This document shows positions 20,014 through 20,157 of a stretch of 64,000 bases of DNA, one piece after another. Made by a program: the position numbers and the translations under genes. How positions within the stretch are numbered: position 1 is the stretch's first letter; the number at the start of each line of letters is the position of its first letter. The DNA is from Pseudomonadota bacterium (lineage in GTDB: Bacteria; Pseudomonadota; Alphaproteobacteria; Micavibrionales; UBA2020). Below the pieces are notes generated by a model. The model searched no databases. It saw nothing but the letters and a program-made list of their open reading frames with translations, and was not told the origin of the DNA. The stretch lies in contig JAZDGQ010000007.1 of the NCBI GenBank assembly GCA_043806835.1, forward strand, positions 2,831 through 66,830. The letters are read 5' to 3'.

Positions 20014-20157
20014 CTTTAGTCTCCTTTGTTTTGACGTTGATGTTTAGTCCCTTTAATACAGATAGTCCTCGATAGTGTAGTCTGCAGTTTCTTAGTGTAG
20101 TTCCTAGTTCCTAGTTAACAACCCTGAAATTATACCTCCCAATACGATTTTTAGTAA
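20014..20157 (-). promoter_or_regulatory. internal sigma-70-like promoter plus repeat-rich 5' leader of icmD
   Basis: Minus strand has TTACTA (20157-20152), a 17-nt spacer, then TATAAT (20134-20129). The ~110-nt leader carries nine ACUA (TAGT on the plus strand) and five GGA motifs; the last GGA is the AAGGAG SD. Confidence 0.45.

Follow-up and report, generated by a model that had tools for sequence, protein, structure and literature searches.

Why does the gap between two adjacent secretion genes carry nine copies of one four-base motif, and what might read them? We asked this of the icmC-icmD gap in a 64-kb stretch of contig JAZDGQ010000007.1 (hereafter the window), in which a Dot/Icm-like type IVB secretion system (T4BSS) is encoded on the minus strand. 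The gap (20014-20222, 209 bp) runs from the icmC stop (20223) to the icmD ATG (20013) and has a GC content of 0.39, compared with 0.58 for the window. A first-pass annotation had called it the most AT-rich stretch of the cluster, which is right up to a near tie: the lowest-GC bin lies at 20000-20199 (0.365), essentially level with one at the cluster edge (26300-26499, 0.37). The same annotation had seen in the gap a leader repressed by CsrA/RsmA through multiple GGA motifs. Here we report that the conserved unit is (A)ACUA rather than GGA, and that, across 983 kb of related DNA, arrays of this unit are specific to the icmD gene family. Our preferred reading, which we hold tentatively and at slightly less than even confidence, is that (A)ACUA may be a sequence-specific, RNA-level element in the 5′ untranslated region (UTR) of a separately promoted icmD-icmJ-icmB unit, recognized by a factor other than CsrA.

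A degenerate heptamer array precedes icmD

The ~105 nt that precede the icmD start contain nine ACTA on the coding strand, seen on the plus strand as TAGT (20017, 20045, 20063, 20073, 20078, 20093, 20098, 20105 and 20112), and a tenth TAGT, at 20152, lies inside the −35 hexamer of a predicted promoter. The window mean is 0.07, and this is the sole place in the 64 kb with at least five copies per 105 nt. Nine copies compare with 0.70 under mononucleotide shuffling (0/20000 shuffles reach nine) and 4.45 under dinucleotide shuffling (9/20000), so the repeat cluster reported by the first-pass annotation is real and non-random.

Eight (R)ACUA units make up a degenerate heptamer array (20045..20116, minus strand) with spacings of 7, 7, 5, 15, 5, 10 and 18 nt, within which Tandem Repeats Finder detects a perfect tandem of GGAACTA (2.7 copies, 20098-20116). 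The last of the nine units belongs to a block proximal to the Shine-Dalgarno (SD) sequence, GGGACTAAACATCAACGTCAAAACAAAGGAGACTAAAG (20014..20051, minus strand), that is nearly identical in the closest genome relative. Here the SD AAGGAG (20026-20021) is directly followed by ACUA (20020-20017), placing the unit between SD and start codon in the order AAGGAG-ACUA-AAG-AUG. Five GGA each abut an ACTA, and the last of them is the SD, an overlap that is trivial for any GGAG-type SD. The module GGA(N0-2)ACUA that had been counted five times holds up in its strict form at only three places; the other two are GGACTA with a shared A.

Known RNA families and generic elements did not account for the array. 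An Rfam 15 search of 19950-20300 returned no matches at E up to 10, and none was found in the icmC-icmD gap region at the gathering threshold. Plasmid homologues, sought as a gauge of generality, gave neither a DNA match nor a tblastn match. Coupling through a leader peptide was rejected: an upstream ORF (open reading frame) ending in ATGA over the icmD start is present in the relatives labelled L001 and L102/L103, is absent from the window, L108 and L111, and the peptides differ. A UAGU-rich long-range pairing partner is likewise not conserved, with three TAGT in the icmG-icmC gap of the window and none in L105 or L111. Read against consensus sequences, several further candidates were provisionally set aside: promoters of the extracytoplasmic-function type (GGAAC-N16-17-CGTT) and of the sigma-54 type, for lack of the right spacing or of the GG element; Hfq (ARN)n sites, which fit only the AAGAAC-U units of some lineages; a Rho rut site, as there are no YC dimers and C does not exceed G; sigma-dependent pausing at a −10-like NACTAT, since only some units end in T; and an RfaH ops-like element, to which there is no similarity. 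We also considered and provisionally set aside pairing of GGACUAC with 16S rRNA around position 800 (the 806R primer site), an rRNA segment that is helical, and MazF-type cleavage at AACU.

In the related DNA compared, arrays with the same core are confined to the icmD family

We compared the gap with related loci, drawing on 113 sequences (983 kb) in which L-numbers label the loci of the relatives. Scanned on both strands, they contain 17 clusters of at least four ACTA per 80 nt, and each of these is found immediately upstream of a gene of the icmD family, on the same strand as that gene. The SD-adjacent arrangement GGAG-N0-2-ACTA occurs 55 times in 1.87 Mb; 47 of these sites precede an ORF, and 44 of the 47 ORFs belong to the IcmD family. 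Among these are single-copy lineages whose IcmD is only 40-50% identical. Since this motif is icmD-specific and has been kept in distant single-copy lineages, the array looks like an amplification of an old icmD-specific ribosome-binding-site (RBS) motif.

In L001, the closest genome relative (IcmJ 89% identical), the gap has nine ACTA and two GGA. Gaps of relatives with 69-82% IcmD identity are 189-324 nt long and are rich in ACTA and poor in GGA: 8 and 3 copies in L105, 10 and 2 in L102 and L104, 11 and 2 in L103, 14 and 4 in L106 and L107, and 24 and 1 in L108, where the single GGA is in the SD. L109, truncated where its contig stops, shows 7 ACTA in 90 nt. None of the ten expanded-array gaps and leaders listed contains the reverse complement, TAGT. 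Tandem Repeats Finder detects 22.7 near-perfect copies of AACTAAG in L108 (97% match) and 3.0 copies of AACTACG in L106. The period is 7 in the window, L106 and L108 alike; the three-base linker differs by lineage, and the AACTA core is constant among these three. ACTA is the commonest 4-mer in 9/13 independent leaders, at 7-15 times expectation, and the top heptamers of these leaders all differ. More distant lineages carry two to six RRRACTA units just downstream of a −10-like box (L111, L027, L031, L072, L075, L029, L015/L085 and L095-L097), and copy number across lineages ranges from 1 to 24.

One relative shows a rearrangement of this region. L103 carries a tandem duplication of the whole gap and icmD (3001-3381 and 3923-4303) with identical leaders and with icmJ and icmC fragments between the copies; the duplication is either real or an assembly artefact.

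ACUA is conserved in preference to GGA and to the linkers

Aligned with L001, the window leader matches at 82% of ACTA positions, compared with 25% of GGA-only positions and 63% of the remaining leader positions. With an independent aligner and six lineages, ACTA positions are more conserved than the spacers in 29/30 ordered pairs. A neutral simulation of the window leader puts the alignment bias at ~0.01 and reaches the observed gap of 0.24 in ~2% of runs. The whole gap is 71-80% identical between lineages, versus 45-67% for four-fold sites of icmD and 52-81% for those of icmJ. We regard these figures as consistent support for selection on ACUA, not as proof.

The proposal that the leader is repressed by CsrA, with a CsrA dimer held on several GGA including the SD and blocking ribosome binding, began from the five GGA of the window leader, one of them in the SD. 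In addition, ACUAGGAACU agrees at 7/10 positions with the CsrA consensus from in vitro selection, RUACARGGAUGU, a lead rather than a test. The comparative data turn against this proposal. GGA is not enriched in the window leader (5 versus 3.28 expected under dinucleotide shuffling, p=0.14), its positions are poorly conserved next to those of ACTA, and sister leaders keep 7-24 ACUA with 1-4 GGA, the long L108 array offering a single GGA. GGA is dispensable as the recurring element, and folding of the leader predicts no GGA-presenting hairpins beyond one weak stem. Neither csrA (by tblastn) nor fliW was found in the 64-kb window, and no csrA adjoins flgK-flgL. CsrA-type control of Dot/Icm functions in Legionella had been offered as a precedent, which does not transfer automatically, because the relatives of this locus are alphaproteobacterial (labelled Alphaproteobacteria or Micavibrio-like) and none belongs to the Legionellales. 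CsrA is not generally known from Alphaproteobacteria. We consequently give CsrA control hardly any credence. The fallback of the first-pass annotation, an operator for some other DNA- or RNA-binding regulator, is viable. Whatever the repeats do, and even if they are a tolerated microsatellite, the locus serves as a worked example: several GGA in a leader do not suffice for calling it CsrA-controlled.

In a second alternative, heptamer slippage seeded at the RBS region could have produced a largely neutral microsatellite, or a spacer whose sequence is immaterial, with ACUA incidental and any benefit coming from an A-rich, unstructured, start-codon-poor leader on which the 30S subunit and S1 dock more readily. 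The perfect tandem tracts are typical of slippage (L108, 22.7 copies; L106, 3; the window, 2.7), copy number varies widely among lineages, the leaders are unstructured and 42-53% A, and no trans factor was found in the window. Against neutrality, ACTA is retained in old degenerate arrays whose linkers have drifted, nine units remain in the window as well as in L001 despite four-fold sites near saturation (~0.55 identity), and SD-adjacent ACUA survives in the single-copy lineages described above. The array is also not unstable, as L102 and L103 have gaps of equal length that are 98% identical. We consider a largely neutral or sequence-independent array unlikely, though deserving of real weight.

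A predicted promoter and a terminator-like hairpin may set icmD apart from icmC

The first-pass annotation had placed a promoter, TTACTA-17-TATAAT, upstream of the array. An independent promoter scan calls the same site as TTTACT-18-TATAAT (20158..20129, minus strand), with 10/12 matches to the sigma-70 consensus. Shuffled sequences yield one such sigma-70-like site per 2 kb, so the match to consensus is weak by itself, and support for the promoter comes from its conserved position in sister lineages. The −35 block AAAAAAAGCTTTACTAAAAATC (20146..20167, minus strand), composed of an A-tract and TTTACT (20158-20153), is identical over 22 nt between the window and L001, while their four-fold sites are only ~55% identical, and the block is conserved across seven lineages. 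For the −10 hexamer TATAAT (20129..20134, minus strand), the aligned column retains T-A-T in 7/7 lineages and the final T in 6/7 (TATAAT, TATACT, TATTGT, TATACT, TATAAT, TATAAC). Scanning of the relatives called the same site in L001 (9/12) and L106 (10/12); in L103 and L108 it fell below threshold. From these positions we infer a transcription start near 20124-20122.

At the other end of the gap, a terminator-like hairpin, GAGCGTCGTCTTGGCGCTT (20196..20224, minus strand), overlaps the icmC stop codon and is followed by UUUGUUUUUU. The terminator scan reports it as a GC-rich hairpin at 20224..20206 with the U-tract TGTTTTTT behind it (fold −9 kcal/mol, z=−1.46). The U-tract after icmC is kept in L001, L102-104 and L108, and stem quality falls from good (L001) through moderate (L108) to weak (L103, L105 and L106); among L001, L103, L106 and L108, the scan called a terminator in 0/4. 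The hairpin and U-tract fit the earlier suggestion that icmD-icmJ-icmB may be controlled separately from the upstream genes, as does the finding that other lineages have icmD as the first gene of a separate locus, preceded by a conserved promoter box.

A different arrangement occurs in a clade with icmC-icmD gaps of only ~60 nt (L003-L026, L046 and L076-L098). There an 8-bp hairpin starts from the icmC stop codon (GTAG-A-stem...stem-CTAC), flanked by TAGACA and TACAAT-like hexamers. Its pairing is 95%, and it shows 16 compensatory cells, a value that 0/500 shuffles reach. Because of this hairpin with its hexamers, and because icmD heads its own locus in distant lineages, separate control of icmD-icmJ-icmB appears to be a recurring theme.

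Further conserved sequences surround these genes. A promoter-like box, AATTTG(C/A)C-N14-19-TGnT(C/T)TAAT, has 23 matches, all on the T4BSS strand (window 21183-21214; L002, L025, L027 and L037-L072), and for 22 of the 23 the gene downstream belongs to the DUF6750 family (icmC where the lineage is closer, icmD where it is distant); the match in L061 has no ORF within reach. The window copy, GATTTGCCTGTACCCTGAAAAGATGGTCTAAT (21183-21214, minus strand), is upstream of icmC. Conservation of the leader that follows the short-gap-clade hairpin, AATGTGTGTAAGTGAAGGAG(G)AACTACAAATG, exceeds that of the IcmD protein. The distant lineages L036-L070 have long icmD leaders; 60-180 nt upstream of icmD, with the promoter box on one side and the SD on the other, a motif, AAAATCGCA(T)/AAATTGG, recurs in them.

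The leader is predicted to be unstructured and may act as RNA

The window leader folds with a minimum free energy of −12.8 kcal/mol (z=+0.64 versus dinucleotide shuffles), forming one weak hairpin with a GGA in its loop. Other leaders fold no better than shuffles, with z of +0.61, +1.38, +0.40, +1.12 (L106), +2.92 (L108) and −0.22; for L108, 200/200 shuffles fold better. In the short-gap clade, RNAalifold found no structure in the leader proper. A hairpin with the SD in its loop (GUAAGU...ACUAC) was considered for that clade and rejected, RNAalifold predicting only an upstream 4-bp helix.

The lack of structure bears on whether the array is a contingency locus of the hmw1A/uspA2 type, in which frequent slippage would create heritable, reversible differences in T4BSS expression within populations. 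Such a locus would be expected to show a 5′-UTR heptamer repeat before a gene with a surface or secretion function and a copy number that differs strongly from lineage to lineage, as here, and there are precedents in hmw1A (PMC12721329) and uspA2 (as cited in PMC4679880). Most of the arrays, however, are degenerate and so slip poorly, the only long perfect tract being that of L108. Near-identical lineages do not change in length, since the gaps of L102, L103 and L104 are all 220 nt and 98% identical and L106 equals L107, in what is a small sampling. Moreover, the hmw mechanism needs a long hairpin, and the L108 and L106 leaders are less structured than their shuffles. Phase variation of this kind is, in our judgement, highly unlikely here.

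The repeats could instead work as double-stranded DNA. In that case they would bind a transcription factor that polymerises on repeats, such as a ribbon-helix-helix protein of the omega type or a response regulator, and block or modulate transcription of icmD-icmJ-icmB. Direct repeats with a 7-bp period do adjoin a promoter, and the omega protein reads 7-bp heptads. Elsewhere in the family, icmD is preceded by repeats of another kind: in L084 (~2860-2910) and L110 (~2870-2910), icmD has no icmC before it and three to four direct repeats CTTACAA/CTCACAA with an 11-bp period lie upstream, and on one contig (of P0012) where icmD is again not preceded by icmC, a divergent hybrid histidine kinase and an OmpR-type response regulator adjoin it, reminiscent of two-component control of dot/icm genes. 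Because of these repeats and this regulator pair, control of icmD by a transcription factor is plausible within the family. For the ACUA array itself, the geometry speaks for RNA. All units are downstream of the −10 hexamer and in gene orientation, reaching into the SD-AUG spacer, where the single copy that most lineages retain is, at 4 nt, too short to serve as a DNA site. In the degenerate arrays the spacing is irregular (4 to 28 nt) and loses helical phase, and neither the avoidance of TAGT nor the lack of RNA structure would matter for double-stranded DNA. We think a DNA operator fairly improbable. Position, orientation, irregular spacing, TAGT avoidance and lack of structure together point to action as single-stranded RNA.

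A proposed mechanism for the (A)ACUA element

We propose the following model for the RNA-level reading. The hairpin and U-tract at the icmC stop would attenuate read-through, and the conserved sigma-70-type promoter (A-tract, TTTACT-18-TATAAT) would start a separate icmD-icmJ-icmB transcript that opens with a ~110-nt, A-rich, unstructured 5′ leader. This leader would be the degenerate remnant of a tandem heptamer array with the unit RRAACUA and the functional core (A)ACUA, its last copy placed between SD and AUG. The array may have grown by replication slippage from the SD-adjacent motif, and selection may since have kept it as a single-stranded RNA element specific to icmD. Most likely, the many equivalent ACUA sites, one of them at the RBS, would tune translation initiation and/or mRNA stability. 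The reader would be a sequence-specific factor for single-stranded RNA other than CsrA, either a protein that, in keeping with the period of seven, covers ~7 nt per subunit (oligonucleotide-binding folds of the Csp/S1 type, or HutP/TRAP-like rings) or the 30S subunit. In this model the level of action, the direction of the effect and the nature of the reader are all putative.

Several observations weigh against the model. That the array is transcribed at all is deduced from the DNA, and no candidate binding protein for it was found in the window. Since copy number ranges so widely, dosage is not tightly constrained, which fits a loosely selected or partly neutral repeat as well. Repeat orientation is inherited by descent and so does not by itself exclude a DNA-level site. 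In one subclade (L022, L027, L031, L072 and L075) the upstream units are present and AGUA, not ACUA, stands beside the SD. The conservation statistics come from related, low-complexity sequences, with single-pair p-values of only 0.02-0.04. Finally, the GC content of the window genome is higher than that of its relatives; this depresses four-fold identity and makes the gap compare too favourably.

The array lies in a T4BSS block of an uncultured alphaproteobacterium

Profile searches place a Dot/Icm-like T4BSS at 15785-26249 on the minus strand, in the gene order icmL-L-K-E-G-C-D-J-B, as in Legionella. The block is chromosomal, being flanked by aroK/aroB/corC-type genes and flgK/flgL (context 11806-29679), and the remaining genes of the window are housekeeping genes; in our survey of the window genes, no regulator gene was found near the cluster. 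The icmD/dotP-position gene (19630..20013, minus strand) encodes 127 residues with a signal-peptide-like N-terminus and two hydrophobic segments. It is assigned by DUF6750 (Pfam PF20535, E=4.3e-7) and by the synteny icmC-icmD-icmJ-icmB, and NCBI lists the protein as a "DUF6750 family protein" of a Pseudomonadota metagenome-assembled genome. Downstream are icmJ/dotN (18902-19612, minus strand; NCBIfam IcmJ_DotN, E=7.7e-26) and icmB/dotO (15785-18859, minus strand). The gaps are 17 nt between icmD and icmJ and 42 nt between icmJ and icmB, a tight packing from which we judge that both are probably co-transcribed with icmD. Upstream, the icmC/dotE-position ORF (20223..21179, minus strand; likely ATG at 21140) has weak matches to Pfam DUF6750 and NCBIfam TraQ_IncI1. 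It is a fusion whose N-terminal ~110 residues are an IcmD paralogue (BLASTP 41% identity, E=1e-22) and whose C-terminal half is TraQ/IcmC-like.

The closest IcmJ relatives, at 73 genome loci, are all from uncultured bacteria, with 0/73 from Legionellales. Their records are labelled Alphaproteobacteria, Micavibrio or Rhodospirillales, or carry broader or likely mis-binned labels (Proteobacteria, Bdellovibrionales). The host is an uncultured alphaproteobacterium with Micavibrio-like relatives and not a Legionella. The Dot/Icm-like system is thus found outside the Legionellales and Gammaproteobacteria, where such systems are usually discussed.

Other features of the window were recorded in passing. 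IcmJ/DotN has a weak match (E=6e-4) to the HNH-like region of an IscB model, probably reflecting a common zinc-binding cysteine motif. A molybdenum-cofactor riboswitch (70.7 bits; 51624-51743, minus strand) adjoins moaC/moaD/moaE/moeA, and a tRNA gene (8523-8596, minus strand) is near a tyrosine-recombinase (XerC/D-like) gene (9886-10917). An ORF located between flgL and an RNase D-like gene (29729-30292, minus strand) has an acidic N-terminus and a long polyproline tract and overlaps a spurious ORF on the opposite strand (29876-30337); the Pfam search used only the latter and found no family match.

Comparison with known leader elements

The leader of this secretion gene, from an unstudied lineage, carries a degenerate heptamer array that keeps a 4-nt core and is specific to one gene family. 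Dot/Icm type IVB systems have been studied almost only in Legionella and Coxiella, and their regulation is known mainly through transcription factors and CsrA. Here one small family (icmD, DUF6750) has a conserved leader element to itself, whose 4-nt core has survived deep divergence and which reaches 24 copies. If the repeats are read as RNA, they would constitute a compact, portable module for translational control.

Like CsrA/RsmA leaders, the icmD leader presents several short single-stranded motifs, one of them at the RBS, and the logic of SD occlusion could match. It differs in that the conserved motif is ACUA and not GGA, which relatives can dispense with, and in that the motifs are not presented in hairpin loops. 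Oligomeric readers of short motifs at small fixed periods are known from terminator/antiterminator switches of Bacillus, with a UAG every 7 nt for HutP and a GAG/UAG every 5-6 nt for TRAP. The icmD leader resembles their targets in its short repeated motifs at a fixed small period, and the window contains UAGGAAC UAGGAAC; unlike them, it has no predicted alternative structure, and its core is ACUA followed by A or G.

Two leaders with perfect, fast-varying repeats in the 5′ UTR come from contingency loci in which experiments support an effect of repeat number on expression. In Haemophilus influenzae hmw1A/hmw2A, (ATCTTTC)n sets expression and forms one arm of a long hairpin that is processed by RNase III, and the repeats phase-vary at high frequency (PMC12721329). 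The icmD array shares with hmw1A the 7-nt tandem repeats in the (here predicted) 5′ UTR of a surface- or secretion-related gene and a copy number that differs by strain or lineage, whereas the icmD leaders are unstructured (z up to +2.9), mostly degenerate and stable between close relatives. In uspA2 of the cultured pathogen Moraxella catarrhalis, 5′-UTR AGAT repeats form a perfect tract of 6-23 copies whose number sets expression, with mutational evidence (Attia and Hansen 2006, as cited in PMC4679880). Both loci place a short tandem repeat between the transcription start (predicted for icmD) and the start codon, and the icmD repeat differs as a heptamer with a conserved 4-nt core and free linkers.

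The closest likeness is to the TAACTGA heptamer direct repeats of marine Beggiatoaceae, some Cyanobacteria and Bacteroidetes (MacGregor 2015, PMC4679880). Those repeats are genome-wide, with 169 sets spread over unrelated genes, where they usually stand in for an SD, and were proposed as targets of a post-transcriptional regulator, with S1 and Csp proteins as candidates and CsrA judged unlikely as the repeats have no GGA (PMC4679880). Bacillus CspB, as noted in the same paper, binds heptamer repeats with one protein per heptamer. In both sets, heptamers are repeated directly, in forward orientation, a short way upstream of a start codon; the two share an AACUR core (TAACTGA versus RRAACUA), stops in all three frames and a predicted single-stranded state. 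The icmD array differs in being limited to one gene family (in 983 kb), in keeping a strong SD, AAGGAG, and in its units, GGAACTA, AACTACG and AACTAAG; exact TAACTGA was noticed once, in L001. For both, a regulatory role is putative.

A more specific mechanism can be imagined, which we offer as a speculation and consider unlikely. The array would be the operator of a novel translational control system: an oligomeric single-stranded-RNA-binding protein, with one subunit per ~7 nt, would coat the AACUR repeats from the 5′ end to the SD copy and thereby set the output of the DUF6750 protein and the downstream IcmJ/IcmB ATPase module, and the Beggiatoaceae and cyanobacterial TAACTGA repeats, which have the core, period and position in common with the array, would be the genome-wide version of the same mechanism. 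If the icmD repeats are read as RNA, they would provide a tractable, single-gene test case for the long-unexplained heptamer leader repeats of other phyla.

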